From Mobula hypostoma (taxonomy: Eukaryota): a DNA stretch of 64,000 bases. How positions within the stretch are numbered: the first letter of the stretch is position 1; the number at the start of each line of letters is the position of its first letter. The stretch is from the NCBI RefSeq assembly GCF_963921235.1, contig NC_086107.1, positions 99,326,001-99,390,000 on the forward strand, in the 5' to 3' direction. Made by a program: the position numbers and the translations under genes. The notes under the pieces are model-generated. The model saw nothing but the letters and a program-made list of their open reading frames with translations, had not been told where the DNA came from and did no database searches. Shown piece after piece: positions 5,846 through 33,150 of this stretch.

Positions 5846-5871
5846 TTGTCCCAACTCTCTAAATTTTCCTG

Positions 5872-8650: not shown

Positions 8651-8667
8651 ATGTTTGGACGTTACAG

Positions 8668-8994
8668 GTCAGACACAACTGACTTGCAAAATCAACCAGA
8701 AACAGCTGATCACTGTCGCGGTGGTGAATGAAGAGGTGAGCTTCCAGTATGGGTATAAATGTGAAAGCACCAACAAATCAGCACCCCTGACAAAGGCCAT
8801 CTCTGTCACCATGCTGCTCTACAAGGATACGTCCTCCAACATTCTGCAAAGTTCCAAGGACTCTGTTCCTCTGACAGCAATTAAGGAATGGAATCTGACT
8901 GTGAAGGGCACAAACTACAGTGGGATGTACTACTGTGCCATGAAAATCCAGTCCACACACTTCCAAGGGACAGGGACCTTATTATACGTGGTGG
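8668..8994 (+). CDS. NFAM1: Ig V-type domain exon of the NFAM1-like gene
   Basis: gttacag|GT...GTG GTG G|gtaagt; peptide QLTCKINQKQLITVAVVNEEVSF...NYSGMYYCAMK...FQGTGTLLYVV with F-strand YYC, J-like GxGT and three N-glycosylation sequons (NKS, NLT, NYS). Confidence 0.9.
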
Positions 8995-11900: not shown

Positions 11901-14900
11901 CTATGGCAATGAATTCCATAGATTGCTAAAGAAATTCCTCTTCATCTCTGTTCTAAAGGGATATCCTTCTATTTTGAGGCTGTGTGCTCTGGTCATAAAA
12001 ACGCCCACTATAGGAAACATCCTCTCCACGCCCATCCTATCTAGGCCTTTCAATATTCAATTGGTCTCAATGAGATCCTCCTTATTCTTCTAAACTCCAG
12101 CGAGTACATGCCCAGAGCCATCAATTACTCCTCATACATTAACCCTTTCATTCCCTGGATCACTCTTGTGAACCTCCTCTGAACCCTCCCCAAAGGCAGC
12201 ACACCCATCTCTGGTGGAACTCAGTGGGTCAGGCAGCATCTGTGGAGGGAAATGGACGGTCAATGTTTTGAGTTGGGACCCTTCATCTAGGCGGGTAGGA
12301 TTGATAGTCACATGGTTGAAAATGGATACTGAAAGTAAGACAGCATAGATTTGTTGAGGAGGAATTGCCTGACCAGCTTGGTAGGAGTTTTTTGATGAGG
12401 TGACGGACTGAGCTGTTGCGGGTAATGCAATGGACATACATGGACTTGCAGAGGGCACTCGAAGGATGCCACATTAATGGCTTCTCAGCCGTGTTGAAAC
12501 ACGTGGCAAAAAGAGGCACTGGTGGCATAGAAAGGAAGCTGGGCAAGGTGTGCCACAGACAGTGGTGATGAAGACTCCACTTTGAACCATGTATTGTGAT
12601 AACCTAGATGAAGGCACTCAAGATAGAATTTGCTGATCTTATAAAGGTAGGAGTGAAGGGGATATACATAGGGGGATATAGATGGGTTAAGTAAGTGGGC
12701 AAATATAATATGGGATAATTCAAATTATCATTTTTGACAGGAATAATAAAACAAATATATATTATCCAAATGGTGAGAGATTTCAGAGCTCAGAGAGAGA
12801 GAGAGAGAGAGAGTATTCTAGGAGTACTGGTGCATGGAAGGTGCTGGCATGGAGGGCTAGGAATGACATGAAGGAAATCTGGAAGTTGAACCTGACCTAG
12901 AGAGCTTAAAAAGAGGATTTTCATAGCAGTCATAGAGTCCATTCTCACGTACGGATGCGAGACATGGACACTCACCAGGACGATGTGAAAGTCTCTAGAT
13001 GGTTGCTATACACGAATGCTCCGGATGGTTCTTGACGTGAGTTGGCAACAGCACATGACGAACACTGAGCTCTATAACAACCTACCGATGCTCACCACTA
13101 AAATCGAGGTGAGAAGACTGCAACTAGCGGGGCACTGTCTACGCCACCCCGAGCTACCTGCCAGCCTAGTCATCATATGGGAGCCCCAGCACGGGAGGAT
13201 GAACCCTGGGCGCCCTCCCAAGACTATGGTCAACACGCTCCTAGAAGACAGCGGCGCGGCTAATGTGTATGAACTGAACACACTGATGAGGGAGAGGGAG
13301 AAGTGGAGAGTCCTTCATCGTGCCCGATGCCGGCCCCCTAGGCCTGAATCGACGTAGTAAGTACTGGTGCACAAGTCACAAAAGGCTGGTACACAGGTAC
13401 AGCAGAAATCAGGAAAGTTACTGAACATTCTCCTTTACTGTTAGGGGAACTGAATACTTGAGTAAGAAAGGATGCGGATGCTGGAAACTGCAGCAACAAA
13501 CAAACTGCTGGAGGAACTGGTGAACGCAGCAGGCCAGGCAGCATCTCTAGGAAGAGGTACAGTTGACGTTTCAGGCCGAGATCCTTCATCAGGACTAACT
13601 GAAGGAAGAGCTAGTGAGAGACTTGAAAGTGAGAGGGGGAGGGGGAGATCCAAAATGATAGGAGAAGACAGGAGGGGGAGGGATGGAGCCAAGAGCTGGA
13701 CAGGTGATTGGCAAAAGGGATACGAGAGAATCATGGGACAGGAGGCCCAGGGAGAAGGAAAAAGCGGGGGGAACCCAGAGGATGGGCAAGGGGTATAGTG
13801 AGAGGGACAGAGGGAGAAAAAGGAGAGAGAGAGAGAGAAAGAATGTGTGTATATAAATAAATAACGGATGGGGTATGAGGGGGAGGTGGGGCATTAGTGG
13901 AAGTTAGAGAAGTCAATGTTCATGCCATCAGGTTGGAGGCTGCCCAGACAGAATATAAGGTGTTGTTCGTCCAGCCTGAGTGTGGTTTCATCTTTACAGT
14001 ACAGGAGGCCGTGGATAGATATCAGAATGGGGCCGTGTCCTGACGAAGGGTCTCTGCCCGAAACATCGACTGTACCTCTTCCTAGAGATGCTGCCTGGCC
14101 TGCTGCGTTCACCAGCAACTTTGATGTGTGTTGCTTGAATTTCCAGCATCTGCAGAGTTCCTCGTGTTTGCTGGAGGAACTGCTCAGCGGGTCGAGCAGC
14201 ATCTGTGGGGGGGTGGGAGGGTAGGAATTGTCAACGTTCCACAAGGAAACCCTGCGAAGGGATTAAGAGTGGAGGCATGAGATGGCCTGCGTGCAATGGA
14301 GAAGTGGGGGGGAGGGGTGATCGGCGGACTGAGGAGGAGGAAAAGGTGAAGGGCAGGTTGTACCAGGTGAGGAGAGGAGGGGGTGGAGTTGGACGATAGT
14401 AGCAGGTGCATTATTATGTAAATAGCAAAGGTAATGAGGTTATGTTTCAGTTACACCAGCAAGAGCACGTCTGCAGTACTGTGCGCTGCATTGCCCTCCT
14501 CACTGAAGAATGAAGTTAATGTTTTGGAAACAGTCGAATGTTTACTGGACTGTGATGTGGAAGGGATGGATCATCTTATGAGAAAACACTAAACCAGGCT
14601 GTCGTTGTACTTTTTAGTGTTTTACAGTGGAGAGGACCTGGCAGAATTATTTCAGAGCGCGAGAGATCTTGTTGGGCAGATGTGCAGCGGGTGTTTCTTC
14701 ATAAGGTAGAATCTTGACTGGGCGTCACTGTTTAACGCTAAAGGGTCACCCGCTTGTCACTCTTTAACGCTAAAGGGTCACCCGCTTAAGGCAGGAATGG
14801 TGTGATTTTGTTTTCTTGGTGCCTTTCATTGTTGCCACACTTCTTTTAACACTGGTTGAAGCCACGTTTGAATATTTTTACAATACAGGTAGAAGAATTA

Positions 14901-17900
14901 TTGTTCAGCAAAGGGGTGATGGTTTACTATGGGACCAGAATAGCAGAGCTTGAGGGGCCGAGGGGCCTACTTTCTGCATTGATACGTTTGCGATTGGCTG
15001 GAGCTCACCTTGAGTTCGGAGAGGCCTGGGTCACGTGGAGCCTGTTGCCATGGAGAGGAAGAGTCGCTGGTTAGCCACGAGGGAAGGTATGGCTCAGTTG
15101 GGATTAACTGTGACGGAGGAATCAGCCATCCTGTGGAGAGACACAGGCTGACGCTTTAGTCAGGGGAAAGCCAGCCTGCTTTGTTAGGGAGAGATTGTGT
15201 TTAACTGCTGAGTTTCTGAAGTTGATAGTTGGATGAGATATACATGGGCCTTGACAAAGCTTCACACAGCTCGGACTTTAGTGCACTCCCACCAGGGAAT
15301 GTGTGGCACAGTCCATACAAAGTAGAATGATACAGCACAGTGTGGGACCTACAGCCCCCAATATTTCACTAAGCCGTATAATCCTATTCCACAATCAAAC
15401 TACACACCCCATGACCCTCCATGTTCCTGTCTAAGAGTCTCCTACTGTATCAGCCTTCACCACAATCCCTGGCGGTGTGTTCCTGCTGGCACCTACCACT
15501 CTCTGTGCCTTAAACAAAAATGTCCTACCTCTGATATTCCCCCCTGTACTTTCCTCCATTCACTGACATTGGCCATTGCTGCCCTGGAATAAAAGGTGCT
15601 GGCTGGCCACTCTGTTCACCCCGCCTCTCATGATCTTACACCCCTCTAACAAGTCGCCTCTCCGCACTGCCACTAACCTATGAGTTCCATCTTCCAAAGT
15701 GCATCACTTCATGGTATTTGCCCATTTGGTAAAGCAGGCACAGCAAGTAAGAAATAAAGCAGGAATGCTGGAAGAACCCATCAGATCTGGCAGCGGCTGT
15801 GGAGAGAGGAATAGCTAACGGCCAACCTGGAACATCAACAATGTCTCTTTTCGCAGACGCTGCCTGACCTGCCGGGTGTTTCCACTGCTTCGTTTTTATT
15901 TCAGATTGTCAGCGTCTGCAGCGTTTTGCTTTATAATTGCAGCGAGCGTGCAGCCACAGCATCAGACGTCGATGTATACAGTAATGGGGATCTCCACAGC
16001 CCTGGCGGTCTACAGTGTGTCCGTCACAGTGATCGTGCTCGTCAAAGGGAAGGTCAGTAGGATTGTGGGGTGGTGATACCACCCACAGCTGATATCTGCA
16101 CTCTGATATAGAGCTCTCTCAACTTTTTCTCATCAAATCTGGTCTCTAATCCAGGCAGCATCCTGGTAAATTTCCTCTGGCCCTTCTTTAAAGCTTTCAC
16201 ATCCTTTTTATAATGAGGCAAGCAGCAATGAACACAATACTCCTGTGGTCTAACCAGAGATAAAACATTACCTCATGGTTCTGGAACTCAATTCCCCAAC
16301 TAATGAAGGCCAACACCCAATATGCCTTCCTAAACAACCTATCAACTCGAGGGGTAACTTGGAGGGATCTATGCACTTGGACCCCGATGATGGAGGGGGA
16401 TAGGGGAAGCCCAGTGATGGAGGAGGCAGAGGTGACCCGGGGTTGGAGAGACAAGTGATGGGAGAGGTAGGGAGGACCAATGATAGATTATGAAGACATG
16501 CAGTCCTCTTTTATTGTCATTCAGTAATGCATGCATTAAGAAATGATACATTATTTCCTCCGGTATGATATCACAAAACACAGGACAGACCAAGACGGAA
16601 AAAACTGACAAAACCACATAATTATAACATATAGTTACAGACAGTGTAACAATACCATAACTTGATGAAGTCCGTGAGCACAGTAAAGTTCAAAGTCTCT
16701 CAAGTGTCCCACATCTCCCGCAGACGGGAGAAGGAAGAAAAACTCTCCCTGCCATACCCAACCACGGTCCGACTCTGAGTCATCCGAAAACTTCGAGCTC
16801 TGATCAGCTCTCCGACACCGAGTACTAAGCGCCATCTCTGTCCGAGCCATTCAACCTCCTTCTCAGTTGCCAAAATCAGGCAAGGCCAGGGATTTTGAGG
16901 CCTACCCTCCGAAAGATTCCCAACCATGCAGTAATGACAGCAGCGAACGGGCATTTCAGAAATTTCTCCAGATGTTCCTCTGTGCTTTCACGTCCATCTC
17001 CATCAAATCAGAATTGTCCACGGCCCCTATTTAACAGATACAATATCATTTTTCACCCGAAGATGGCACACTGGAGGGGATGGAGGGAGCAGAGTTGGAG
17101 GAGGTAGGGGGCCCAGTGATGGGGGAGGAAGAGGGGGTACCAGTGATGGGGGAGGAAGGGGGGGACCAGAGATGGGGGAGGAAGGGGGGTACCAGTGATG
17201 GGGGAGGAAGGGGGGGACCAGAGATGGAGGAGGAAGGGGGGACCAGAGATGGGGGAGGAAGGGGGGTACCAGTGATGGGGGAGGAAGGGGGGTACCAGTG
17301 ATGGGGGAGGAAGGGGGGGACCAGAGATGGGGGAGGAAGGGGGGTACCAGTGATGGGGGAGGAAGGGGGGACCAGAGATGGGGGAGGAAGGGGGGCCAGT
17401 GATGGGGGAGGAAGGAGGATCAGTGATGGGGGAGGAAGGGGGGACCAGAGATGGGGGAGGAAGGGGGGTACCAATGATGGGGGAGGAAGGGGGGACCAGA
17501 GACAGAGGAGGTAGGGGGCCCAGTGATGAGGGAAGAAGGGGGGGCCAGTGATGGGGGAGGAAGGGGGATCAGTGATGGAGGGACCAGTGATGGGGGAGGA
17601 AGGGGGGTACCAGTGATGGGGGAGGAAGGGGGGTACCAGTGATGGAGGAGGTAGGGGGGACCAGAGATGGAGGAGGTAGGGGGCCCAGTGATGGGAGAAT
17701 AAGGGGGGGCCAGTGATGGGGGAGGAAGGGGGGGCAGTGATGGGGGAGGAAGGGGGATCAGTGATGGAGGGACCAGTGATGGGGGAGGAAGGGGGGGCCA
17801 GTGATGGAGGGGATGGAGGGACCACTGATGGGGGACTTAGGGGAACCAGTGATGGAGGGGATGGAGGGACCAGAGATGGAGGAGGTAGGGAAGCCCAGTG

Positions 17901-20900
17901 AGAGAGGATGGATGGCCCAGTGATGACGGAGGAGGTAGAGGTGGTCCAGTGATGGAGGGGGTGGAGGGCCCAGGATGGAGGAGGTAGGGAAGCCCAGTGA
18001 GAGAGGATGGATGGCCCAGTGATGACGGAGGAGGTAGAGGTGGTCCAGTGATGGAGGGGGTGGAGGGCCCAGGATGGAGGAGGTAGGGAAGCCCAGTGAG
18101 AGAGGATGGATGGCCCAGTGATGACGGAGGAGGTAGAGGTGGTCCAGTGATGGAGGGGGTGGAGGGCCCAGGATGGAGGAGGTAGGGAAGCCCAGTGAGA
18201 GAGGATGGATGGCCCAGTGATGACGGAGGAGGTAGAGGTGGTCCAGTGATGGAGGGGGTGGAGGGCCCAGGATGGAGGAGGTAGGGAAGCCCAGTGAGAG
18301 AGGATGGAGGTGCTGATGTCCCAGTGGCTGAGTTAGAAGAGATAGAGTAATGGAGGGGCCCAGTGACAGAGGGTGGAGGTAGTCCACTGATGGAGGACTG
18401 GCCCACAACCACAACCCCCGTCCCGTGGACAGACTCCAAACATCGCCATGTTTTCCCATTGCTCGGATTTCTCAGGGCTCTGTGGAGCCACAATCAGCCC
18501 ATCGCTGTCTTGACATCGGGGACCTCAGCCCTGGAGCTCGACTCTCTGCGACGCACGTTGGCCCAGGAGGTCCCAGTGAAATCCAGTCCGGGCAGCGGTG
18601 ATCGAGTAAAGAGTGAGTGGGTGCCTTGCGTTAGCGTGTCAGCGGTGCAGTGCCGAGTGTAACTGTACGGAGCAGAACTCCAGTACTCCGCTGGGGAGCT
18701 GTCCGTTCCCCATCCCGTCTCTCAGCTGCCTTGTGATGTCTCCCAGAGTGAAGGGAATTGGCTGAAGACGGGCTCCAGCTGTGCCGGGCCTAACCTTGCC
18801 CCGAAAAATCGATGCAGCTGTAAAGAAGGCAAAACAGCGACTATACTTCATTAGGAGTTTGAAGAGATTTGGTATGTCAACAAGAACACTCAAAAACTTC
18901 TATTGATCTACCGTAGACAGGCTGCATCACTGTCTAGTATGGCGGCGGGGTGGGGGGGGGGGGCTACTGCACAGGACCGAAAGAAGCTGCAGAGGGTTGT
19001 AAATTTAGTCAGCTCCATCTTGGGTACTAGCCTGCAAAGTGCCCAGGAAAATTGCTGGTGAACGCAGCAGGCCAGGCAGCATCTAGAGGAAGAGGTACAG
19101 TCGACGTTTCGGGCGGGCCGAGACCCTTCGTCAGGACCGAACCGTCGACTGTACCTCTTCCTACAGATGCTGCCTGGCCTGCTGTGTTCACCAGCAACTT
19201 TTATGTGTGTTGCCTGAAATTCCAGCATCTGCAGAATTCCTCGTGTAAAGTACCCAGGACATCTTCAAGGAGCGGTGTCTCAGAAAGGCAGCGTCTATAT
19301 TAAGGGCCCCCGGCACCCAGGGCGTATTCTTTTGTCACTGTTACCATCAGGAAGGAGGTACAGAAGCCTGAAGGCACACACTCAGCGATTCAGGAACAGC
19401 TTCTTCCCCTCTGCCATCCGATTCCTGAATGGACATTGAACCCGTGAACACTACCTCACTTTTTAAATATGTATTATTTCTGTTTTTGCACAATTTTTAA
19501 TCTACTCAATATACATATACTCTAATTGATTTTTTTTTTACTTTTTTTTCTATATTATGTAACGCATTGAACTGCTGATGCTAAGTTAACAAATTTCACG
19601 ACACATGCCGGTGATAACAAACCCGATTCTGATTCTGCCGGGATCTTCGTGTTGTTTCCTTGCCCATAGCCTTCCCACTGAATGCGGTTATGAGTGCCTC
19701 GCCTCACATGCCGAGGACAGGGGCAGTTTCCCGGGCCACTTCCTCAGTTACTGTAGCGGTGGACTGCGCCCGGCCCTGTCTGGGTGTTTACTGCTCCAGG
19801 CTCACCTGGGCGCATTCCTCACCGAACCTGACCGGGTCCCCTGGCCGGAGGGAAAGGAGCGGTCAGCCGGTAAGGATACAGTTGCAGTGGGTAACGGTTC
19901 GACTGCGGCTGTTGGGTCACGGGACAGGCAGAGCTGAGTCTATCCCGTCCAACACAGATCTGGTTTAGGATTGTGTGAATAAAACACGCGAGAGTCGTTT
20001 TATGTGTTAACAAAAGCCGCAACCCTTCACTTCCGAACAAACCGAAAGCAGTCGCCTCTTGCACTGACGTCATTATTTCAGGCACCATCTCTTAAAGTTC
20101 AGCAACTCGACGATGGTGTTTGTGAATTATGTGGAACAGTTTCTATTAAGAACAATATGTGTCGTCTGTCACCCAGTACGTTACCCACAGCAACACAGAG
20201 CCCGGTGCTGCAACAAATTCAGGCTCTGTCAGGGCGCCCTCGGTAACACATACAAGAGAAAATCTGCAGATGCTGGAAATCCAAAGCAACACACACACAC
20301 ACACACACACACTGCTGGAGGAACTCAGCAGGCCAGGCAGCATCTATGGAAAAAAGTACAGTCGACTTTTCGGGGTTCGGCCCAAAACGTCAGCTGTACT
20401 TTTTCTCTGTAGACACAGCCTGGCCTGCTGAGTTCCTCCAGCATTTCGTGTGTGTTGCTCGGAAACACAGGACTCTTCTCCGCAATGTCACTGGGCAGGT
20501 GCTTCAGATACCGGCGGGCGGTTTAAGGGCTTTATTGCGTGTGTCCCGTCACTGCCACAGACCCGGTCTGGCAGCTCTGTCCAGCTGGTCAAAGGTGGGG
20601 ACTACAAAGCCACATCTAACGATGGTCTTTGAACTGCGTCACCCACAATGACTTCAATATCCCGGCTCCGTCCAGTGTCCCTCCCTCCTGAGGAGTACTG
20701 ATTCATCAACTGAGGGAGCTAGGTTGGTGGCCACCAAGAGGAGATTCCCTTGCCGTCCTTCAGCCTGAAGCCATGGGATCCAGAGAGCATTGCGAATGAC
20801 GGTGCAGAAACAGCCCACACCAACCCGCACCACCCCTGTACAATGACCCATTTGACTTCTCCCAACATTTCCCTCAATACCATCCAAATTACTGCAGCCA

Positions 20901-23900
20901 TTTAAGCTTCCAACCTTCACATCTTTGAGATGTGGGAGGATTCTTGGAATTCATTTCCACAGACGCTGTGGAAGCCAAGTCATTGGGTACATTTAAAGTT
21001 GAGTTTGACCAGTAAAGATGTCAAAGGTTAGAGGGAGAAGGTAGGAGGACGGGGTTGAGAGGGATAGTAAATCAGCCAGGATCGAATGGTGGACCAGACT
21101 GGATGGGCCAAATGGCTTGAGTCTGCTCCAATGTCTTATGGTCTAATGGAAACTGGAGCATCCCGAGGAAACCCATGTAGTCACAGGGAGAACGTGCAAA
21201 CTCCACCCAGACAGCACCTGTGTCTCTGGTGTTGTGAGGCAGTAGCTCTACTAGCTGCATCGCTGTGCCCGTTGAGGGATCGAAGGGCCCCTTCCTCTCC
21301 CCTGTAGACCTCCGTGATGCCACCTTCAGGCCCGGTGGTCAAACCCTGCACCACCAAGGGATTCTGCAGATGCTGGAAAACTGAAGCAACACACACAAAA
21401 TGCTGGAGGAACTCGGCCAGTCAGGCAGCCTCTGCGGAGATAAATGGTCATCGATCCTGATGAAGGGCCTTGGCCCGAAATATTGACCATTCATCTCTCT
21501 CTGTAGATGCTGCCTGCCTTGCTGAGTTCCTCCAGAACCTTGTGTGTGTTGCCCAAACCTTGAGCCCCCATTGTTTCTTCCCCTTCCCATCGGACAGAAG
21601 ATACAAAACCCAGAGATCATTTGCCACCATGCCCTCGGGCAGATACAAAACCCAGAGATCATGTGCCACCATGCCCTAGGGTAGATACAAAACCCAGAGA
21701 TCATGTGCCACCATGCCCTAGGGTAGATACAAAACCCAGAGATAATGTGCCACCATGCCCTAGGGTAGATACAAAACCCAGAGATCATGTGCCACCATGC
21801 CCTAGGGTAGATACAAAACCCAGAGATCATGTGCCACCATGCCCTAGGGTAGATACAAAACCCAGAGATCATGTGCCACCATGCCCTAGGGTAGATACAA
21901 AACCCAGAGATCATGTGCCACCATGCCCTAGGGTAGATACAAAACCCAGAGATCATGTGCCACCATGCCCTAGGGTAGATACAAAACCCAGAGATCATGT
22001 GCCACCATGCCCTCGGGCAGATACAAAACCCAGAGATCATGTGCCACCATGCCCTAGGGTAGATACAAAACCCAGAGATCATGTGCCACCATGCGCTAGG
22101 GCAGATACAAAACCCAGAGATCATGTGCCACCATGCCCTAGGGTAGATACAAAACCCAGAGATCATGTGCCACCATGCCCTAGGGTAGATACAAAACCCA
22201 GAGATCATGTGCCACCATGCCCGAGGGCAGATACAAAACCCAGAGATCATGTGCCACCATGCCCTCAGGCAGATACAAAACCCAGAGATCATGTGCCACC
22301 ATGCCCTCGGGCAGATACAAAACCCAGAGATCATGTGCCACCATGCCCTAGGGTAGATACAAAACCCAGAGATCATGTGCCACCATGCCCTAGGGCAGAT
22401 ACAAAACCCAGAGATCATGTGCCACCATGCCCTCGGGCAGATACAAAACCCAGAGATCATGTGCCACCATGCCCTCGGGCAGATACAAAACCCAGAGATC
22501 ATGTGCCACCATGCCCTCGGGCAGCTTCCACCCCACTGTTATAAAACACTTGAATTGAACCTCTTGTGCACTAAAGATGAAGTCTTGCTCTCTCAATCTA
22601 TCTCATCGTGGCCCCTGCATTTTATTTGTCTACCTGTGCTGCACTTTCTCTGTAACTGTAACACAACACTCTGATTTCTCTTTTGTCCTGCCTTGAGGTA
22701 CTTACAGTATAAATGGAATGATTCATCTGGGTGGCCTGCGGACCAAAGATTTTCACTGTACATGTGACAATAATAAGCCAGCTACCAATTATATATATAT
22801 GTTCTTTATGTTCTAGACCTGGTCCCGGTGTAAATCCTACTGGACGAAAACTCCCAATGGGAACGTCACTGAGAAGGTAAGATCCAGGCTGCTTCCTTTC
22901 GCCCGCTCCAGGATTGAGCAGTATAGTGAATTAAATCGTTGTTGAGTACAAGGTTTATAATTATGTAGTGAAGATGTTTGAAAGTGCCCTGTAGCCAATG
23001 AGGTGCTACTTAAATGTAGGGATTGTCGCAAATTGTGAACTTCAGCACCCAGTCTGAGCACAGGAACCTCCCAAACATCACTATATCATCTCTTCAAATG
23101 GTGTTTGTTGTGGTTGTGCCACACCTTTGGGAAAACACCACCTCATCTCTGGATGTTGTGCTGGGACGTAAACACAAGAACCGAACAGCAACACCTCAGC
23201 TCAGCATCGCGTCCAAACAAGTATAAGAAATAGGGGCAGAACCAGGCCATTTGGCCCCTTGATCCTGCTAGACCATTCAACCAGATGGTGGCTGGTCTTT
23301 AATCTCGGTGCCACCCACACCCTGTGCTCTCCTAAACATTTAAAACCCTTTCAATCTCTGTTAGTGCCTCTTTCCCCACCTTCCTCTCAAAGGGTCCGAG
23401 GATTCATTTTATTATCGAAGTATGTATGCAGAATACAACTCTGAGGTTCGTCTTCTCCAGATAGCCACGAAGTAAAGAAAAACCGTGGAGGTAGTTGAAA
23501 GAAAAGATATCAGCCCCCACCCCCGCAAAAAAGAAAATGAAACAAAAACTCGCAGACCTGAAAATCCCAACCCTTCCCTCGCACAGAAACTAACAGATTG
23601 TCCACATGGAAATTCGCAGCTAGAACATCAAACCCCAAACCCCCAGTCCCCTCTCTCATTAGGCAGGGAAATCCAAAGATTCCCTGCCCTATCGGTGATA
23701 AACATTCTTCTCAGCTCTATCCTGAATGGCTGGCCCCTTCCTTTGGAGAATCTGACCCTTGGTTCTACACGCAAAGGTACGAAATCATAGTTTCACATCT
23801 TCTCTATAAAACTCCTTATGTTTCCATCAGGTTCCTTCTCATTGTTGTAAACCCCAGGGCAAAGACTCCTTCTGCTTAATCTCTCCTCATCAAGCACAAT

Positions 23901-26900
23901 GTTGCTCATGGGGGGTGGGGGGTGGGGGGAGGAGGGCAGGTAATGAGGAAGGCATGTAGAATATTGTTTAAATGGTGTGGAACTTCCGGTATTGCTAAAT
24001 CTGGATTCTCCCTTATAAAAATCAAAGGAAGATACCAGCAGGTGATGAGGGAGGGAAGTGGTCTTTGTTCCAAGAGAATGGAGGATACCAGTAGGGAAGC
24101 TTTGCTTTGAATCGACTATATCTGAAGTATTGTGTGCAGTTGTGGTCTCCTTATTTAAGGCAGCATCCAGTTACCTTGGAGGTAGTTCACTGAAGCTTCA
24201 CTGGATTGATTCCTGGGGTGAAGCAGTCATCTCCTGAGGCAGGGTTGAGCAGATTAGGCCCACGCTCCCTGGGGTTGACTTGAAAAGGAAAGGTGACCCT
24301 AATGAAGTAAAAGTCTCTGAGGGGCTTTTGGAAGTGTGGTTCTTTCCTCTGGTGGGAAAATCTAGAACTGGAGATGAACTCTGAGGTTAAGGAGTCATTA
24401 CTGAGGTGAGGTGGAGTTCCTTCTCTCGGACTGAGCATCATCTACCGGATGAAGGGGGGAGTCATTAAGCCTAGGCCAAGCTGAGGAAGAGGGTTAGCCA
24501 TTACAGGAAGTGAAGGATTCTGGGGATCAGCGGAACGTAGGTGAAGATCTGATCAGATGTCATGCTCGAAAAGGGTGCCACAGTTTGTAATTGATACACC
24601 ACAGGGATGTACCTCAGTTTGTAAGTGATATACGGGAGCGATGTATCACAGTCTGTAATGGATATGCTGGGGGGATGTGTCAATGTTTACCTGAGGGCTG
24701 CATTATGGTTTATAATTGATATTTCCGAGATTGTTGTTGCTGTGGTTTGTAATTGATATTCCTACAGGGAACATCTCAACAGTCATGTTACAGTCTGAAA
24801 TTAATATTTGAGGAAGGGTGCTACAGTTGGTAATCAATGTGCCCATCAATGGTGAACAGTGGGTGTTGACTTTCCCTAGGGTGCTGGTCTAGTCTGTGAT
24901 CCACACACACAAATAGGTGCTACTGCATCTCCCGGTTGAGGGATTTGCTACATCTTATGAGCGGGGATTGGCCATTTATCAGAGTGAGCTCTCTTTGTTC
25001 AGTCGGTTTTTAATGAAATGTGGAACGTTGAGAATGTCCACGTTTCCCCCCATTTGCTCAACTTGCCCGTGATGGTGTGATACGAGGGTGGGCACGTGAA
25101 TGTCCAGGTCTGGGACATCACTAACTTCACAGCTCTTTGTTTCCTAGAAACGGTCGACCACTGAGAGCTTAGGAGGGCAAGTGGGACACCCACCAGAGGA
25201 TGACAATGCGTACATGGTGAGTGGAAATTTCTACGAGTACCGGGTACACTGGAGCAAGCCTTACACAGTAAGGACACCACACACACCTGTTCAGGGCTTC
25301 CTTCATCATGTCAGTAACTCGATTTTCACTCCTGTCGGTCATGCAAGTCCCGGGTGGAGACTCAGGAATACCGTCGCACTCAGATGTAGAAGGATTCTTC
25401 ACTGCTGTTTCCGTAACAATTTTGTTTCACCAGTCAGGGTTGTTAGCCCTGAGCTCAACCCCCAAACCTTTGAAGGTCTGGTGGACCACTCTTAGTCTGG
25501 CCTCTACCCTTTGACCTGTTTGGCATGGGTGACCAGACAAGAACCGAAGCATAAAGCCCTGACTCCAGAACCCGGACTGGAAAGAAAAGGGGGAGAAGTC
25601 AGAATAAGAAGCTAGAAAGCAGAATATTCTGACTTCTTCCTCCTTCCTTCCTTTGCTGTCCCGAGGAAGGGTCTTGGCCCGAAATGTCGACTGTTTATTC
25701 CCCTCCATAGATGCTGCCCGACCTGCTGAGTTCCTCCAGCACTTTGTGTGTGTTGTCCCACATTTCCAGCATCTGCAGAACCTCTTCTGTCTCTGAAACT
25801 TGGCAATATGGGGACTAACAGAAAATGGGTGTGTGGCATATAAACAGGAGCTGAGGCCGTGTGAGTGTGTTGTTTAAAGAGTCCAAGTGGCAGTGATGTT
25901 ATGCAGAAGGAAGTAGAAACTGGGAGTTTTCTACATAGAGTAAAAGATTGCAAGTGTGTTACATAGAGACTGAGTGAGGGTTACATAGAGGGCAACAGTG
26001 ATTAACACTGAGTCTAAAAGCTTCTATAAATCTTTTAAAAAGAAATAAATGGCTCAGTGGAAGTCCCCTACTGTCAGAAGAAGAATTCATAATGGGGAAG
26101 AGAGTAAAGCAGCATAATTAAGCAAGAAGTTCAGTTCCATCTTCACAAGGACAAAAGGAAAAGGTGGGGACAAGAATCCAGGGAGAGTGAGAAATTAAAG
26201 GAAATAAATGAGAAAACAGAATGGAGAAATTAATGTGTAATAATCCATCTACAGCCTGGAGTACTGGAGTACTGCAGTCAGGTGCGGTCACCCCATTCTA
26301 GCAAGGATGCGGAGGCTTTGGAGAGGGTGCAGAAGAGACTCAATTGGATGCTGCCTGGATCAGAGGGGTTGGACCCAATCTGGGTTGTTTTCTCTGGAGC
26401 AGCAGATGCTGAGAAGAGATCTGATAGAAGTTTATAAGATCACGAGAAGCATGGATAGAGTAGTTAGACAGTATCTTTCTCACAGGTTGGGGTGTCTAAT
26501 ACTAGAGGGTATCTACCTATCTCCTATTTAACCCTAGCCTAGCCACAGGACAATTTACAATGACCAATTAACCGGTACGTCTTTGGACTGCGGGAGGACA
26601 CCGGAGCACCCGGAGGAAACCCATGCGGTCACGGGGAGAACGTACAAACTCCTTACAGGCAGCGGTGGGAATTGAACCTGGGTCACTGGTACTGTAACAT
26701 CAAAGGAGAGATACAGGGCAAGTTTTGTTTACAAAGAATTCAGGTACCTGGAATGCACTGGTAGGGGTCCTGCTGGAATTTGATATTTAAGATGGTCTGA
26801 GATAAGCACATGAATGTGCGGAGGATGGAGGCATATGGAACAGGAGCAGGCAGAAGGGATTTGGTGCCATTTGCTCAATCAGTTCGGCACAACGTCCATA

Positions 26901-29900
26901 AGACCGTACGACATAGGGGCAGACATCAGCCATAGGGATGGTTCCTACGGTGGGCGTGCTACATTGGTGCCGGAAAGCGATACTTGCGGGCTGCCGCAGC
27001 ACATCCTTGGCTTGCGTTGGTTGTGAACACCAATAACGCACTTCACCGCATGTTTCAATGGATGTCATACATAAATCCATCCGAATCCATCTCCTGACAC
27101 CAGTCATGGGGATGATGCTAGGGGCTGTGCCATGAGATAATGGGGCGTCGAGTGGTGCAGCGGGTGATGAAGCTGCTCCCAGCTCTATCTGAGCGGGGTC
27201 CGATTCAGACCCGCGGTTCAGACTAGGTGGAGTTTGCAGGATCCTGCCATGACCACTTGGTGACCAATTTCCTCCAGAACTCCCGTTCCCTCCCACATTC
27301 CCCCAAAATGTGCTGACTGGCAGATTAATGGATGCTGGAAATTACCCCGGTCTGTAGTCTGGGGCTGATCCTCAGGAGATGCTAATGGGCACAAGGCAGG
27401 GAATGGGACACAGGGAAATAAGGGAGGGGGTGGAACTGAAGGAACTGTACTGAGAATTAGCATAGATTCAGTGGACTAAATCACCTCCTCCTCAGTCATA
27501 AGGATTTGCAAAGATATATGGAAAATTATCAGCAGGATAGATACAGTAATACCAACATGAGTTTATAGAAAAGATTCATGTTTTACAAACTGAGCAGAGT
27601 TTCTGAGGATGGGCCTGGTAGAAAAGATTGGGGAAAGCAAGCAGATGTGGCGATCTGAGATTTTCAGGCAGTCTTGTTAAACATTAGGGTTTAGGATTAG
27701 AATGCATGGTCTGTCCTGCGTGGATTAATGGACAGGAATAAAAGGGTCTCTTTTGTGGTGTCAGTTTACGGAATTCCATAAGAGCTGCTCATCCCTCAGC
27801 TCTTCATAATAGCCATCAACGATTTGGATCTTTTTGGATAGGCAACTTTTGGAAGTTAGCCAATGGCATTAAACTGGGTGGTCCAGTGAATTGTTAGAGG
27901 CTTCAAAGTGACAAGTTGAGTCAGTGGGCAAACTAATGGCAGATGCAGTTTAATGTGGCTAAATGTGAAGTGACCCACTCTGGTAAAACAAACAGGAAGG
28001 CTGCCTAATGATTAAACGGTGTAAGACCATGAGCCAGCAGAACAGAATTAGGTCATTCAAGGCATTAAGCTTGCACTGCCATTTGGTCATGGCTGATTTA
28101 CTATCCCTCTCAACTCCATTCTCCAGCCTTCTCCCTGTAACCTCTGATGTCCTTACTAATCTAGAACCTATCAGCCTCCTCTTTAGATACACCCAATGAC
28201 ATTACCTCCGCAGTTATCTGTGGCAATGAATTCCACAGATTCATCATTCTCTGGCTAAAGAAATTCCTCCTTGTTTCCGTTCTGAAGGAATCTTTGCATT
28301 CTGCGGTTCTGCCATCTGGTCCTGGACTCTTTCACTAATGGAAACATCCACTTTGCGTTCACTCAGAGCAGGTCTTTCAATATTTAATGGGCTTCAACGA
28401 GATTCCACCTCATTTTTCTAAACTCCAGTGAGTTTAGTCCCAGAGCCATACATTAACCCTTTCATTCCTGGGATCATTCTCATGAACCTCCTCTGGACTC
28501 CCTCCAATGCCAGCACATCCTTTCTGAGATAAGGATCCCAGAACTGCTCACAATACTCCATGTGTAGTCTGACCAATGCTTTATAAAGCCTCAGCAATCG
28601 CATCTTTTTTTTACATCAACTCCAGTGAGTGTTGACGTGCAAAGAAGCAAGTGTTCACTGCAGAAAACATGCAGGCAAAGTGAGGAGCTAAGGAGGCCTT
28701 CATAGCAAATGAATTTGAGTGCTCTTTCTGTAACATTAGTGGAAACAGTGTTATATGGAGAGGAATGTAAAATTGGAGATGCAAAGGGACTTGGGAGTCC
28801 GAGTGCAGGGTTCCCTAAAGATTATCTTGTAGGTCGAGTCGGTAGTAAGGAAGGCGAATGCAATGTTAGCATTCATTTTGAGAGGACTAGAATATAAAAG
28901 CAAGAATGTAATGATGAGAATCCAAGGAAGGATGTGCTGGCTTTGGAGAAGATCCAGAGGAGGTTCACAAGAATGACCCCAGCAGCGAAAGGTTTATGGA
29001 TGAGAAGTGTTTAATATCTCTGGGCCTGTACTCACTGGAGCTTAGAAGAATGAGGGGGAATCTCATTCAAATCTACCGAAAACTAAAAGGCCTAGATAGA
29101 GTGGACGATAATCCAGGTCTAGATGGTACAGCCACAGAATGCAAGCGTGTCCCTTTGGAATTGAATTGACTTTATTACTTACATCCTTCATGTACATGCG
29201 GAGTAAGAATCTTTACATTACGTCTCCGTCTAAATGTGCAGTGTGCAATTTGTATTAATTTATAATAAATAGTATGTACAACAGGACAGTCAATATGACA
29301 TAGAAATACAATTGTGACAGCATGAATTAATCAGTCTGATGGCCTGGTGGAAGAAGCTGTCCCAGAGCCTGCTGGTCCTGGCTTTTATGCTGCGGTACCG
29401 TTTCCCGGATGGTAGCGCTGGAACAGTTTGTGGTTGGGGTGACTCGGGTCCCCAATGATCCTTCGGGCCCTTTTTACACACCTGTCTCTGTAAAAGTCCA
29501 GAATAGTGGGAAGTTCACATCTACAGAGATGAGGAGGAATTTCTCTCGCCCAAGGGTGGTGAATTTGTGGAATTCATTGCCACAGACGGCTGTGGAAGCC
29601 AAGTCATCGGGTATATTTAAAGCGGAGACTGATAGGTTCTTGATTAGTAACAGCGTCAAAGGTTACGAGGAGAAGGCAGGAGAATGGGGTTGAGGTAATA
29701 AATGAACCATGATAGAATGGCGGAGTAGACTCAATGGGCCGAATGGCCCAATTCTGCTGCTTTGTCTTGTGGTCTTAAATCAGGAGCGAAAGAGATAAGG
29801 GGTCTGCTATGTACGCGATAATGAGCAAATGGAAAATTATATAAAGGTTGACAGAGACTGCGTGTGAGTATTTTAGAGGGTATCAGATTGGGAGAGTGCA

Positions 29901-32516
29901 AAATAGAGATTAACAGGGAATAAGTATGCCCTGGATAGAGGGCAAAGGAGTTAGGCTGTGTTATACAGAGTACAGGGTGGGTTTTACATAGAGAGCAGCA
30001 GTGTATGATGTGTTCTATATAAGGAGTAAATGGAGAAGCGGGAGAATTTGTGCACAGGGTGTTGGACATTCATAGCCCAGGGGGAACCTGTACATTAACA
30101 GAGAGTAGCAGTGATTGAAAATACATTTTCCCGTGGGGGCAGAGGCAGAGTGCGTTTCACCTTGAGTAACAGAGACAGTGACGTTATCGTTCAGTCAGTA
30201 AATGAGCCGACGGCTGTGTTATGCAGGGAGCTGCGATTTGAATGGAGTGCGACCGAGGCTGGCGGCTCTTTATCTTTGGGGGGGGGGGAGAAAAACGAGG
30301 GAAGTGGTGTAATTCTGAAAGCACGGAGGTGATCGCCTCATAACGCGTGGAGAAGGAATATTTGGGAGTGGGAGATGGCTGGACACAGAATCAGAAGGGC
30401 CGCAGATACTGGAATCTAAAACTAAAATTAAACCTGATTGAACCGCTCAACAGATCAAACAGCATCTGTGGAATGAGGACCAGAGTTAACAATTCATCTC
30501 AAAGATCCCTCTCCAGAACAGAGGCAGAAAGAACTCAGGTTTAAATTGCGGTAAAATGGGGATAGAAGGCACTCAGCCTGAGAAGTTGAATTGTTGATTT
30601 CCCTCCATAGAAGCTGTTTGACCTGCTGAGTTCCGCCAGCATTCTGAGTGTGCTGTTTGAATTTGCAGATCTGGGTGTTGGAGGAGGGGGTGTTCGGGGA
30701 TAGATAAGACAGATGGGATGTATCCGATGAGGTGAGGCCAGATTTGCCATGGGGGATAAGTTGATACTATTTGGTTGATAAGCTAATGGGGGAAAGGAGA
30801 GAGAGGGCATGAGAAAGGAGCGTAGAAACAGTCGATATTTACAGGGAATCCACTGGAGTTTGTCGGTGTTCATGGGGATCTCCGGGCCATGCCAGTATTC
30901 ACAGGGGTCCCAAGGAGAGTGCTGGTATTCAGAGGGGTCCCGGGGAGAGTGTCGATGTTCATAGGGGGGTCTTCGGAGCCTGCTAGTATTCACAGAGGTC
31001 CCAGAGAGCATATTGGTATTTACAGGGGATCCCAGGGTGAGTGCCGGTATTCACAGAGGTCCCGGGTAGATTGTCCGTATTTACGGGAGGTCCCGGGGAG
31101 AGTGTGAGTATTTACAGGAGGTCCCGGGGAGAGTGTCGGTATTTACAGGCGGTCCCGGGGAGACTACTGGTATTTATAGAGGGTCCAAAGGTGAGTGCCA
31201 GTATTCACAGGGGGGTCCAAGGGTGAGTGCTGGTATTCACAGGGGCCCCGGGGTGAGTGTCGGTACTTATAGAGGTCCCGGGGAGCGTGCCGGTATTCAC
31301 AGGGGTCCCGAGAAGAGTGCTGGTATTTATAGAGGGTCCAAGGGTGAGTGTCGGTATTCACAGAGGTCCCAGGGAGCTTGCCGGTATTCACAGGAGGTCC
31401 CGGGGAGAGTGTCGGTATTTATAAGGGGTCCCAGGGAGAGATGGTATTTATAGGGGATCCTAGGGTGAGTGCCGGTATTCACAGGGGTCCCGGGGGGAGT
31501 GCCGGTATTCACAGGAGTGCCGGTATTCACAGTGGATCCCGGAAGTGTGTCGGTAGTGAGAAGTCCCTGATCTCTGCCTCTCCACAGACACTCAAGAGTC
31601 CCCAGGAATCTATATACAACACGCTCCATGACGCTGGCAACACAGAAGGCACCTCCGCCGCGAAGAAGTCGCTAAAGGTGAGCACCGCCCTTTCACCCAG
31701 CGGCCCACAGCCCAGTCCCAGCACCACTGGGCATCTGGGGCCACCCGCGAGCACCGCGGCTTCGGGCTGCCAGATGGGTGGGCCGGAGTCACGGGCCGAT
31801 CTCAGCCTGCCGGGGAATCCCGCTAAACCGCCATTGAGCAGTGGGTGGGCTCACTGCCACTTGGCTCCGATGGGTGGTGTCACCCGGGTGCGTTGGGTGG
31901 CCTCGCTGATGTCTCGGCGCTCATTGTATGTTGACCCTGCCAAGGGCCGAAGCACGGGACCCTGTCTCCAACCTATCGTATCTCTTTGGGTCACTGAGGC
32001 TCGCAACCCTCCAAACTCAACAACAAGATCGTGGCCCTCTTGGAGGGAGTCTATTCACTGTCTGCCCGGTATTAGGTTAGGCGGTCTTGCTGATGGCTGG
32101 CATCGACTGGGTGGTCTGGCTAACCAGCCAGAGTGTGACAAGCCATCTGATTAATTGGTCAGTGTCTCTGATGGTCTCACTAACCAGCCAGCAACTGTTG
32201 AAGGTTCTCGCTGACTGTCCACGGTGTGGGCAATGGCCAGCAGGTGCTGTAAGGAGTTAATTTCTCTGGAGATGCAGAGTGAAGGGAGGTTGGTTCCTGC
32301 CCACTGATTTCTCACGCCCCCCCCCGCCCAATTACTCCCACCAATTGGGAACCGAATCCAGAACCTTCTGACGAGGTGGGTCTGCGACACTGGGTCACCC
32401 AGTGCCTCTGTGCGCGGCTAACTGTAACCTTGCTTTTCCGTCTGTTGCAGAAGGAGCACACGGAGCCGGCGGTGGCTGACGCCGACGTCTACGAGTGTGT
32501 CTATGAGACTTACTGA
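8668..32516 (+). CDS. NFAM1: NFAM1-like single-Ig ITAM receptor, 5'-partial; join(8668-8994,15943-16052,22817-22876,25148-25216,31588-31677,32451-32516), ~240 aa
   Basis: All six exons have AG/GT boundaries and compatible phases (1-1, 1-0, 0-0, 0-0, 0-0, 0-stop; 722 nt plus 1 nt from a missing leader exon). Architecture IgV + TM + ITAM + C-terminal VYE motif matches mammalian NFAM1 as I recall it. Orthology is not verified by search. Confidence 0.8.
9722..10245 (+). mobile_element. CR1 LINE 3' fragment inserted in an older CR1 remnant
   Basis: ORF 9725-10159 (RKDILAIEGVQRRFTRLIPG...FFTQRVVDIWNALP) followed by the CR1 3' UTR/tail. Confidence 0.9.
10488..11280 (-). mobile_element. Solo LTR (793 bp)
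   Basis: Starts TGTCA, ends TAACA, flanked by a 4-bp direct repeat GGAG (10484-10487 / 11281-11284); AATAAA on the minus strand near 10550; no internal coding sequence. Confidence 0.75.
11570..12200 (-). mobile_element. CR1 3' fragment interrupted by a LINE 3' tail ending (CTATGA)n
   Basis: CR1 3' UTR and C-terminal sequence; AT-rich insert at ~11690-11828 with AATAAA and TATGAC repeats. Confidence 0.7.
12835..13359 (+). mobile_element. RTE-clade LINE 3' fragment with 12-bp TSD
   Basis: ESILTYGCETWTL...RRLQLAGHCLRHPE...GRPPKT peptide; AGTACTGGTGCA duplicated at 12823-12834 and 13360-13371, inside an older CR1. Confidence 0.85.
13470..14170. mobile_element. Penelope-like element fragment with inverted partial terminal repeat
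   Basis: Minus-strand ISIHGLLYC...LRLDEQHLIFCLGSLQPDGMNIDFSNF (PLE GIY-YIG C-terminus); terminal repeat in opposite orientations at ~13500-13600 and ~14036-14170, each with a hammerhead-like core. Confidence 0.85.
14990..15086 (+). promoter_or_regulatory. Candidate internal promoter and alternative first exon of the NFAM1-like gene
   Basis: Inverted CCAAT (ATTGG 14993), GTCACGTG E-box (15030), X-box-like GTTGCCATGG overlapping a Kozak gccATGG (15050), 12 codons + G, then AAG|GTATGG donor in phase 1, in frame with the TM exon. Confidence 0.35.
15943..16052 (+). CDS. NFAM1: Stalk + transmembrane exon of the NFAM1-like gene
   Basis: ttgcag|CG...GGG AAG|gtcagt; (A)SVQPQHQTSMYTVMGISTALAVYSVSVTVIVLVKGK, a hydrophobic span followed by a basic stop-transfer. 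Confidence 0.88.
16483..17050 (-). mobile_element. Non-coding retroposon family X, copy 1
   Basis: Homologous to 60313-60990 and 62410-63042; shares the AATAAA + GAGGAC...GTCYTC hairpin + AATCT 3' end. Confidence 0.75.
17070..18400. repeat. G-rich minisatellite (~26-bp CCAGTGATGGGGGAGGAAGGGGGG units, then about four 99-bp units)
   Basis: Directly visible; the 33-aa periodicity of ORFs 17758-18459 and 17837-18493 gives the 99-bp period; a related remnant lies at 16380-16480. Confidence 0.95.
18800..19636 (+). mobile_element. Rex1/Babar LINE 3' end with (GATTCT)n tail
   Basis: KKAKQRLYFIRSLKRFG...LPSGRRYRSL...RFRNSFFPSAIR-type C-terminus; same family as 54800-55335. Confidence 0.8.
19049..19246. 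mobile_element. Penelope-derived fold-back mini-element with 13-bp TSD
   Basis: Inverted arms around a hammerhead core; AAAGTGCCCAGGA (19036-19048) / AAAGTACCCAGGA (19247-19259); the uninterrupted host sequence is seen at ~54917. Confidence 0.85.
20251..20457. mobile_element. Penelope-derived fold-back mini-element with ~12-bp TSD
   Basis: GCTGGAGGAACTCAGCAGGCCAGGC ... GCCTGGCCTGCTGAGTTCCTCCAGC inverted arms; CTCGGTAACACA (20239) / CTCGGAAACACA (20458). Confidence 0.8.
21361..21552. mobile_element. Penelope-derived fold-back mini-element
   Basis: Same inverted arms; + strand CTGATGA-AGGGCCTTGGCCC-GAAA core at 21457-21480. Confidence 0.75.
21599..22523. repeat. 42-bp minisatellite, ~22 near-perfect copies
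   Basis: Unit AGATACAAAACCCAGAGATCATGTGCCACCATGCCCTAGGGT; 14-aa periodicity in the ORF track. Confidence 0.97.
22817..22876 (+). CDS. NFAM1: Cytoplasmic exon 1 (TWSRCKSYWTKTPNGNVTEK)
   Basis: ttctttatgttctag|ACC...GAG AAG|gtaaga; 60 nt, phase 0-0, open in frame. Confidence 0.75.
25148..25216 (+). CDS. NFAM1: Cytoplasmic exon 2 (KRSTTESLGGQVGHPPEDDNAYM), first ITAM tyrosine
   Basis: ctctttgtttcctag|AAA...TAC ATG|gtgagt; 69 nt, phase 0-0. Confidence 0.85.
26510..26700 (-). mobile_element. HE1/V-SINE-like tRNA-derived SINE (other copies ~21145-21265, 27140-27480, 32810-33070, 59865-59990, 61490-61620)
   Basis: Conserved GGAGGAAACCCA(T/C)GCGGTCACGGGGAGAACGTACAAACTCC core and a B-box-like GGGTTCAATTCCC on the sense strand. 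Confidence 0.7.
27500..29780. mobile_element. Cluster of nested, decayed CR1 and Rex1/Babar fragments
   Basis: RLYKALVRLHMEYCEQFW (28418-28603 -), RVVNLWNSLPQ (29409-29693 +), LPSGKRYRSIKARTSRLWDSFF (29290-29481 -). Confidence 0.75.
30830..31555. repeat. ~29-30-bp minisatellite (GTGCCGGTATTCACAGRGGTCCCGGGGAGA)
   Basis: Directly visible diverged tandem array ending ~30 nt before the 31588 exon. Confidence 0.9.
31588..31677 (+). CDS. NFAM1: Cytoplasmic exon 3 (TLKSPQESIYNTLHDAGNTEGTSAAKKSLK), completes the ITAM
   Basis: ctctgcctctccacag|ACA...CTA AAG|gtgagc; 90 nt, phase 0-0. Confidence 0.88.
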
Positions 32517-33150
32517 GTCCGGCTCCGGCGGGGAACAGCAAGGAGCGACCCGCCCATCCAGTCCCACGCGTCCGCCCCTGCCGCTGCGCGTCTGTCGCGG
32601 AGGCTGCGTCTCTTCCTGGAGCTAGTGCCCTCGGCCATCCCTCCCCCGCAGTCAAATGTCCACGGGAATCCCTAGAGAAAGCGTATCCACAGACTCAGGA
32701 CAGCGGGAGGTGTTCACTCACCCGCTTAGCTGGGCCAGACCTTCGTCTCCCCAGGTGTGTAGCCCGCAGGGGTGAGCTAGAGTCTCCTGTTGCCAAATCG
32801 TTTCGCTTTTTTAATTTGGCGATACCGCGCAGAATAGGCCCTCCCGGCCTTCCGAGCTGCACAACCCAGCAAGCCCCAGTAATCGCAGTTTAACCCTAAC
32901 CCAATGATGGGGTAACTTCAATGACCAGTTAACGCACCTGCGGACTGCGGGAGGAACCCGGAGCACCCGGGAAACCCGCGCATTCAACGGGGAGGAGGTA
33001 CGGAGGATGCCGGGTTTGAACTCCGCACTGTGGCCCGAGGTGTAACCGGGCCGCACTAACCGCGGCCCCCCCTCTGAAATTTCCGTCGCGTTCTCACTCC
33101 GACCTGTCCGTCTCTGAGACCTGCTCTCTTCCAACAAAGCCCGAAGTTCA
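31620..33150. promoter_or_regulatory. CpG-rich island over the last two coding exons and 3' UTR
   Basis: Visibly high GC and CpG density compared with the CpG-depleted flanks (not computed). Confidence 0.5.
32451..32516 (+). CDS. NFAM1: Terminal coding exon (KEHTEPAVADADVYECVYETY*)
   Basis: ccttgcttttccgtctgttgcag|AAG...TAC TGA; acidic residues followed by a VYE motif at the extreme C-terminus. Confidence 0.85.
   Translation, partial: KEHTEPAVADADVYECVYETY

Follow-up and report, generated by a model that had tools for sequence, protein, structure and literature searches.

A seven-exon immunoglobulin-type receptor gene with its own ITAM lies beside a TCF20-type gene in the ray Mobula hypostoma and is most likely the orthologue of NFAM1

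Do exons scattered over repeats in the genome of the ray Mobula hypostoma form a working immune receptor gene, and is this gene the counterpart of mammalian NFAM1? The question is raised by a stretch of 64,000 nucleotides (nt) on contig NC_086107.1, here C45 (C45:99326001-99390000, + strand), which belongs to a 3.48-Gb assembly of 200 contigs and is referred to below as the window. A reading of these letters alone (the sequence-only reading) had described a hidden, NFAM1-like gene of six exons. We found a seven-exon gene, with exons 2 to 7 inside the window, that encodes a small receptor composed of an immunoglobulin (Ig) domain, a transmembrane (TM) helix, and an ITAM (immunoreceptor tyrosine-based activation motif). 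The gene is real and expressed, and most likely represents the orthologue of NFAM1 in this ray. The positional evidence for this identity is strong and the sequence evidence is weak; we consider the statement as a whole, namely, a real and expressed Ig-TM-ITAM receptor gene that is orthologous to NFAM1, to be highly probable.

The coordinates of the exons and of the other features are provided in Table 1, where positions without a contig name are counted from the first base of the window. Once joined, exons 1 to 7 give an intact frame of 774 nt that encodes 257 residues followed by a stop codon. Every intron is of the GT-AG type and the exon phases are compatible; a polypyrimidine tract and AG precede each of exons 2 to 7, and GT follows exons 2 to 6. 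The six phase-compatible exons recognized previously were all found at their places on the + strand with canonical AG and GT borders. However, the gene has seven, and the exon that had been overlooked encodes the signal peptide and lies 851 bp before the first base of the window. The 18 residues encoded there recur unchanged in the leader of the Mobula birostris protein, and no leader exon was found at window positions 1 to 8667 when up to 6 substitutions were allowed in these 18 residues. The ITAM, D-N-A-YMTL-KSPQESI-YNTL, arises only by the splicing of exon 5 to exon 6, as the sequence-only reading had proposed, and is cut by a phase-0 intron between YM and TL. Classical ITAMs as a rule have an exon boundary within their first YxxL module, according to a passage of Guselnikov et al. 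(PMC4536121), which agrees with the earlier description of the split. This feature is common to classical ITAMs and singles out no family.

The evidence for expression comes from four public runs (X1 to X4) that contain the exon of the V-type Ig domain (IgV exon). Their contigs were placed on window positions 13001 to 33000; they carry the label "RNA?" as a guess, none being recorded as RNA. The 15 joints listed, out of 244, comprise repeat-related ones only, and the exon joints were taken from the record coordinates of the pieces. Intron-free contigs without any other letters were present on these exons in three of the four runs (X1, X3, and X4), which all belong to one study. In record 3 of X1 (1802 nt, 0 other letters), the pieces 15942-16050, 25146-25215, 31587-31675, and 32449-33000 have contiguous record coordinates (1301-1409, 1171-1240, 1082-1170, and 530-1081, respectively). 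The second of these pieces abuts the third, which is the joint between YM and TL, and the gap at 1241-1300 comprises 60 letters, the size of exon 4. Record 16 of X3 joins 15942-16050 to 31587-31675 and 32449-32698, with a gap of 130 letters that corresponds to exons 4 and 5, and record 25 of X4 joins 31594-31675 to 32449-32561. For X2, just one piece of 159 nt from the 3' untranslated region (UTR) was among the pieces listed. The offsets of 1 to 2 nt between contig pieces and exon ends are letters that fit either side of a joint. Exon 4 itself is absent from the pieces listed, and the sizes of the gaps suggest that it is included in the transcripts. Judging by their length, the transcript contigs run approximately 529 nt beyond position 33000 and stop near 33529, inside a high-copy repeat.

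The DNA of the IgV exon occurs at a single place in the whole 3.48-Gb assembly. A search with the M. birostris protein returned seven places (E ≤ 1), all at the receptor locus and in exon order, and no second or intronless copy of the gene was found in the assembly. Because the assembly contains no such copy, the intron-free contigs come from RNA. The junctions drawn by the sequence-only reading, including that within the ITAM, are thus borne out by exon-joined contigs with 0 mismatches. These data bear directly on the explanation that there is no functional gene at all, but either a chance assembly of open reading frames (ORFs) or a transcribed pseudogene. It could appeal to the scattering of the exons over 33 kb of repeats and to runs that are labelled RNA by guess. 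Yet it has to face an intact frame of 257 residues over seven GT-AG exons, exon-joined contigs in three of four runs with no intronless copy in the assembly, and a protein that is kept over its full length, with ITAM residues that never vary, in sharks, rays, and skates. We regard it as extremely improbable.

A search with the IgV exon led to predicted proteins in four batoid records, and at least 12 chondrichthyan species have predicted orthologues that share its exon content and the order of its domains and that differ from the window protein at species level only. The protein of M. birostris (257 residues, same exon content) is identical to the window product at 239 of 257 residues. Identity to the window protein is 93% for Mobula, 75% for Hemitrygon, 61% for Pristis, and 38 to 45% for skates, the electric ray, and sharks. 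The records of M. birostris and Hemitrygon akajei are named uncharacterized protein; further predicted orthologues are LOC127585576 (Pristis), LOC129713755 (Leucoraja), LOC116966807 (Amblyraja), and records of Rhincodon, Heterodontus, Mustelus, and Scyliorhinus. The Narcine protein (XP_069765755.1) is named NFAT activation molecule 1-like, and the Pristiophorus record bears the name NFAT activation molecule 1. The gene is therefore not new, and the description of it as hidden does not hold: NCBI has predicted it in many sharks and rays, and two copies are named NFAM1(-like) by NCBI or UniRef. Exon 4 corresponds to residues 162 to 190 of the Mobula protein (P0006) and was also found in the Mobula, Hemitrygon, and Pristis proteins. 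Isoform X2 of Heterodontus (P0017) is without the exon 4 segment, and isoform X2 of Pristis (P0009) has an additional segment of 38 residues between the Ig domain and the TM helix. In this receptor family, exon 4 and the stalk may be alternatively spliced.

To describe the protein, conservation was counted over 13 chondrichthyan proteins aligned end to end. None of the 13 orthologues departs from the Y, L, Y, and L of the two YxxL modules of the ITAM, which are separated by seven residues in 12 of them. The cytoplasmic tail thus contains a single ITAM of the consensus D/E/N-x-x-YxxL/I-x7-YxxL/I, the form that PMC4536121, in the passage concerned, gives for the classical motif. The C-terminal end, ...ECVYE-x-[FY] followed by the stop codon (window 32490-32513), ranks with the most conserved parts of the protein: 11 of the 13 sequences have CVY[ED], one has EVYED, and one unnamed record of 234 residues ends earlier. 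This end may be a tyrosine docking site besides the ITAM.

The fold was predicted with AlphaFold for the Mobula orthologue (93% identical), using the alignment of 13 sequences. The model, with a mean predicted local distance difference test (pLDDT) score of 65.7, comprises a putative signal helix (residues 3 to 17), an Ig beta-sandwich (residues 22 to 126, pLDDT of 86 to 92 over most of the domain), a helix (residues 132 to 172), and a tail predicted to be disordered (residues 169 to 257, pLDDT below 50). The model is consistent with a type I topology, in which a signal peptide is followed by a single Ig domain, a single TM helix, and a tail in the cytoplasm. The tail, of approximately 90 residues and predicted to be disordered, carries the classical ITAM and the conserved C-terminal end. 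Residue 45 (window 8802-8804, exon 2, in the segment ...VSFQ-C-EY.C...) is a Cys in 12 of the 13 orthologues and a Tyr in Mobula and in the window; this Cys probably pairs, from the B strand, with the cysteine of YYC. Three ectodomain cysteines remain in the lineage of the window and Mobula, at positions 24, 49, and 107.

The TM core contains neither D nor E in any of the 13 orthologues; in two of them, an E stands at the outer border of the segment. Since the protein has its own ITAM but no acidic charge in the TM helix, it would be a self-contained receptor and not an adaptor chain; because it combines its own ITAM with a TM helix free of charged residues, it should signal without an adaptor chain. 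This feature matters for a second explanation, according to which the gene encodes a CD79a/CD79b-like subunit of the B cell receptor (BCR) that pairs with membrane Ig via its TM helix and signals by its ITAM. An acidic TM residue is expected in such a subunit, as the signalling subunits CD3, CD79, FcR-gamma, and DAP12 all have a negative TM charge in the passage of PMC4536121 that treats them. The ray protein shares the split ITAM with these subunits, but not their TM charge. Its architecture is equal to that of CD79A and CD79B (Ig, TM, and an ITAM cut between two exons), and a CD79a cluster ties for the top score in the ESM Atlas (0.96, 209 shared features). In addition, CD79 chains from BCR structures took ranks 35 and 41 in a Foldseek search with the model. 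These ranks, however, are those of any V-type domain, the neighbours of the model being V-type Ig domains such as TCR V-alpha, antibody V, NKp30, and CTLA-4. The best 60 matches of the family profile among PDB sequences were antibody and TCR V domains and SCN2B, with no CD79 chain among them, and the chromosomal neighbours of the ray gene are of the 22q13.2 type, another neighbourhood than that of CD79A and CD79B. A CD79-like subunit is thus very improbable.

These neighbours provide the strong, positional evidence that the gene is NFAM1. A single ORF of 1712 residues is followed, 21 kb further on, by an exon for a zf-HC5HC2H (ePHD) domain (34.3 bits versus a cut-off of 29.1). The two make up one gene of the TCF20/RAI1 type, whose end lies 22 kb upstream of exon 1. 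The only RRP7 matches of the genome lie 355 kb upstream and its only CENP-M matches 2.4 Mb upstream, whereas one of three Melibiase_2 (NAGA-type) loci in the genome is situated 0.42 Mb downstream and the only DDDD (SMDT1) match 0.45 Mb downstream, 10 kb past the NAGA-type gene. Three genome-unique and two further markers are thus gathered around the receptor gene, on either flank, within 2.9 Mb of the 3476 Mb of the genome. The order at human 22q13.2, as given in an excerpt of PMC12580483, is CENPM, SEPTIN3, WBP2NL, NAGA, PHETA2, SMDT1, NDUFA6, CYP2D6, TCF20, NFAM1, RRP7A, and SERHL2. The ray gene accordingly stands beside a TCF20-type gene within the CENPM-NAGA-SMDT1-TCF20-NFAM1-RRP7A block, the order of which is rearranged, and the synteny that the sequence-only reading had named as a check was found: the TCF20/RAI1-type gene adjoins upstream, and RRP7, CENP-M, NAGA-type, and SMDT1 genes are on the same contig. 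NFAM1 and TCF20 share a row in a table of genomic regulatory blocks, in the part of PMC6906185 that contains it, and membership in such a block could be the reason for the lasting linkage of the two genes.

A number of observations weigh against the identification as NFAM1, some of which concern the position itself. Pfam found no family in the ORF of 1712 residues. We take the neighbour to be TCF20, as opposed to its paralogue RAI1, from the surrounding markers and the known N-terminus of TCF20, and not from a search. The order in the ray is RRP7, TCF20, receptor, NAGA, and SMDT1; unlike in human, RRP7 is thus on the TCF20 side, across TCF20 from its human position. A4GALT-type and TSPO-type genes are on contigs other than C45, and the human block distal to CYB5R3 is therefore unlinked here.

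The other observations come from sequence comparison. The best Pfam family for the IgV exon of the window was Ig_NFAM1 (PF25830), but the score of 18.5 bits (E = 0.0026, model positions 10 to 104 of 105) is under the gathering cut-off of 27.2 bits. This family matched 8 of the 13 orthologues at E ≤ 1, the most of any Pfam family, with a best score of 23.4 bits, and none of the 13 reached the cut-off. V-set matched 7 of the 13 (best E of 5.5e-5) and outscored Ig_NFAM1 for Amblyraja and Narcine. Ig_NFAM1 passed its cut-off on 5 of 33 scanned hits, which are unrelated multi-V-set proteins; because the model accepts such ordinary proteins, a sub-threshold match to it says little. Genome-wide, Ig_NFAM1 had no match at E ≤ 0.001 and none above the cut-off anywhere, and at E ≤ 10 six partial, noise-level matches were obtained elsewhere (17.8 to 21.1 bits). 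The window exon was outside the 15 candidates scored in this genome-wide search, which therefore cannot act as a reciprocal test.

Profile searches gave a similar picture. A profile of four batoid sequences was compared with 1.84 billion representatives, resulting in 35 hits at E ≤ 0.001, of which 22 had known names. The forward half of the reciprocal check that the sequence-only reading had suggested thus recovered no bony-vertebrate NFAM1 among these 22. All full-length hits were chondrichthyan, except for one unnamed MetaClust record. The weaker named hits were nine uncharacterised teleost Ig proteins and two IGSF6(-like) proteins, from Amia (E = 4.7e-6) and Rana (E = 1.4e-4), which matched over Ig and TM only (query 10-189 and 13-157). 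Twelve of the other 13 hits are multi-Ig proteins by Pfam, with 278 to 1137 residues; the remaining one has 182 residues and no Pfam match and aligns to the TM and tail part only. A word-indexed search with the profile of 13 sequences retrieved only eight proteins, seven from batoids or sharks and the unnamed one. In the ESM Atlas, NFAM1 clusters ranked first and third and the CD79a cluster second, all with 0.96, so that NFAM1 shares the top score with CD79a, and the tail alone (residues 127 to 257) gave a best score of 0.79, with none at or above 0.8.

A third explanation sees in the gene an ancient ITAM receptor, a paralogue and not the orthologue of NFAM1, whose kin might be IGSF6 or the teleost si:ch211-243a20.4 group. 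In cartilaginous fishes it would have its place next to TCF20, tetrapods would have lost or replaced it, and it would act in the same autonomous manner through its Ig domain and ITAM. The nearest hits outside the chondrichthyans are indeed IGSF6, IGSF6-like, and teleost Ig proteins and not NFAM1; none of the 13 orthologues reached the Ig_NFAM1 cut-off; and the Heptranchias orthologue (XP_067830832.1) is named after zebrafish si:ch211-243a20.4 instead of NFAM1, as is the Atlas cluster at rank 8 (0.94). IGSF6 resembles the ray protein in its single V-type Ig domain, its TM helix, and its similar length, and it provides the best named hits outside the chondrichthyans, but the global identity to two IGSF6 records is only 22 to 27%, and both the ITAM tail and the ECVYE end of the ray protein are unmatched. 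Furthermore, the gene fills the NFAM1 slot: its neighbour is of the TCF20 type, and the surrounding block includes RRP7, CENP-M, NAGA-type, and SMDT1 genes. The assembly offers no second candidate for that role, as P0006 matches this locus only (E ≤ 1) and Ig_NFAM1 has no match above the cut-off, and the Atlas ranks NFAM1 clusters 1 and 3. A paralogue is the main rival and, in our view, unlikely. A related statement, that a separate ancient ITAM lineage allied to IGSF6 or si:ch211-243a20.4 occupied the slot at the side of TCF20 in the ancestor of jawed vertebrates and bore ECVYE-x-[FY] as a second docking site, appears quite unlikely. If true, it would place a further family of germline-encoded activating receptors at the base of the jawed vertebrates.

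We therefore retain orthology to NFAM1 as the most likely identity; the orthology proposed by the sequence-only reading is backed well by position and weakly by sequence, given the sub-threshold Ig_NFAM1 match and the named hits that lack a bony-vertebrate NFAM1. Like mammalian NFAM1, which is described in a section of PMC8793151, the ray protein is a type I protein that has a single Ig domain outside the cell, a single TM helix, and an ITAM in the cytoplasm, and it is of similar size (257 residues versus the 30 kDa predicted for the human protein in that section). NFAM1 is likewise the Pfam family with most orthologue matches, the top Atlas neighbour, and the gene with which the TCF20-type neighbour and the block are shared. 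The differences are an Ig domain that scores under the family cut-off, the lack of a direct bony-vertebrate NFAM1 hit, and the local gene order.

[quoted passage not shown] A ligand would cluster the IgV ectodomain, and a Src-family kinase would then phosphorylate both tyrosines of the ITAM. The tandem SH2 domains of Syk/ZAP-70 would dock on the phosphorylated motif, and the signal would pass by PLC-gamma, calcium, and calcineurin before reaching NFAT and the genes for cytokines.

The gene is indeed spread over repeats, as described before, with large tandem arrays in its introns (Table 1). The array in intron 1 shows a strong GC and AT skew. The 42-bp array in intron 3 holds long open frames on both strands (399 residues on the - strand and 326 residues on the + strand), and most of its length shows no contig depth. 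A short interspersed repeat of very high copy number is present at 33420-33600, 13000-14300, 19000-19400, and 25500-25900 and at many other places. Its contig word depth ranges from thousands to more than 100,000, and the receptor contigs break in the copy near 33529. Of the 142 ORFs of the window (at least 90 residues, entropy filtered), 131 were scanned with Pfam, and the 11 omitted overlapped exons or tandem arrays. Among the 131, we found no further gene but only remnants of long interspersed nuclear elements (LINEs), and no further gene was seen from 33 to 64 kb. Elsewhere in the genome, 12 of 13 matches to Gb3_synth (A4GALT/A4GNT-type) lie in a 0.9-Mb cluster on contig C9, mostly as open frames, which looks like a local expansion of glycosyltransferase genes.

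Table 1. Positions of the receptor gene, its chromosomal neighbours, and repeats. Positions without a contig name refer to the window.
Feature	Position	Strand	Details
Exon 1, signal peptide	C45:99325150-99325201	+	donor GTAGGA
Exon 2, IgV domain, 109 residues	8668-8994	+	preceded by ttacag, followed by gtaagt; phase 1 at both ends
Exon 3, short stalk and TM helix	15943-16052	+	preceded by ttgcag, followed by gtcagt; phase 1 in, phase 0 out
Exon 4, 20 membrane-proximal cytoplasmic residues (TWSRCKSYW...)	22817-22876	+	preceded by ttctag, followed by gtaaga
Exon 5, acidic stretch and first half of ITAM, ending ...EDDNAYM	25148-25216	+	preceded by tcctag, followed by gtgagt; phase 0
Exon 6, second half of ITAM (TL-x7-YNTL) plus 17 residues, 30 residues in total, TLKSPQESIYNTL...	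31588-31677	+	preceded by ccacag, followed by gtgagc; phase 0
Exon 7, last 21 codons (...VYECVYETY) and stop	32451-32516	+	preceded by ttgcag
Exon 7, 3' UTR	reaches at least 33000	+	contigs continue past stop
CENP-M matches	C45 96.90-96.92 Mb		
RRP7 matches	C45 98968453-98969909	-	
Single ORF of 1712 residues	C45:99276966-99282101 (L018:966-6101)	+	
zf-HC5HC2H (ePHD) exon	C45:99303124-99303252 (L020)	+	
Melibiase_2 (NAGA-type) locus	C45 99.780-99.799 Mb		
DDDD (SMDT1) match	C45 99808538		
Intron 1 tandem array	5889-8568		10/30-bp unit, ~90-270 copies; ends 100 bp before exon 2; Tandem Repeats Finder
Intron 3 tandem arrays	17107-18308		25/49/99-bp units; Tandem Repeats Finder
Intron 3 tandem array	21599-22521		42 bp x 22 copies, 97% matches; Tandem Repeats Finder
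Intron 5 tandem array	30836-31523		31/61-bp units; ends 65 bp before exon 6; Tandem Repeats Finder
LINE remnant	2416-4002	-	RVT_1, Exo_endo_phos; Pfam
LINE remnant	35020-39780	-	RVT_1, Exo_endo_phos; Pfam
LINE remnant	49809-52428	+	RVT_1, Exo_endo_phos; Pfam
Gb3_synth cluster	C9:85643253-86557600		

The gene is otherwise ordinary, in that it encodes a known type of receptor and is predicted by standard pipelines in related genomes. What is added here is a name based on synteny, for RefSeq records that are mostly labelled "uncharacterized protein", and a list of conserved residues. In the full-text literature, we found no paper on NFAM1 in cartilaginous fishes (by title) or in teleost fishes, in a search to which approximately 1.7 million PMC articles were inaccessible. 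The residues that have been kept between rays and sharks, namely, those of the ITAM, the ECVYE end, and the Ig cysteines, could guide work on the ligand of NFAM1, which is still unidentified according to the section of PMC8793151 that deals with it. Taken together, the position-based evidence indicates that the TCF20-linked NFAM1 locus already existed in the ancestor that cartilaginous and bony vertebrates share.

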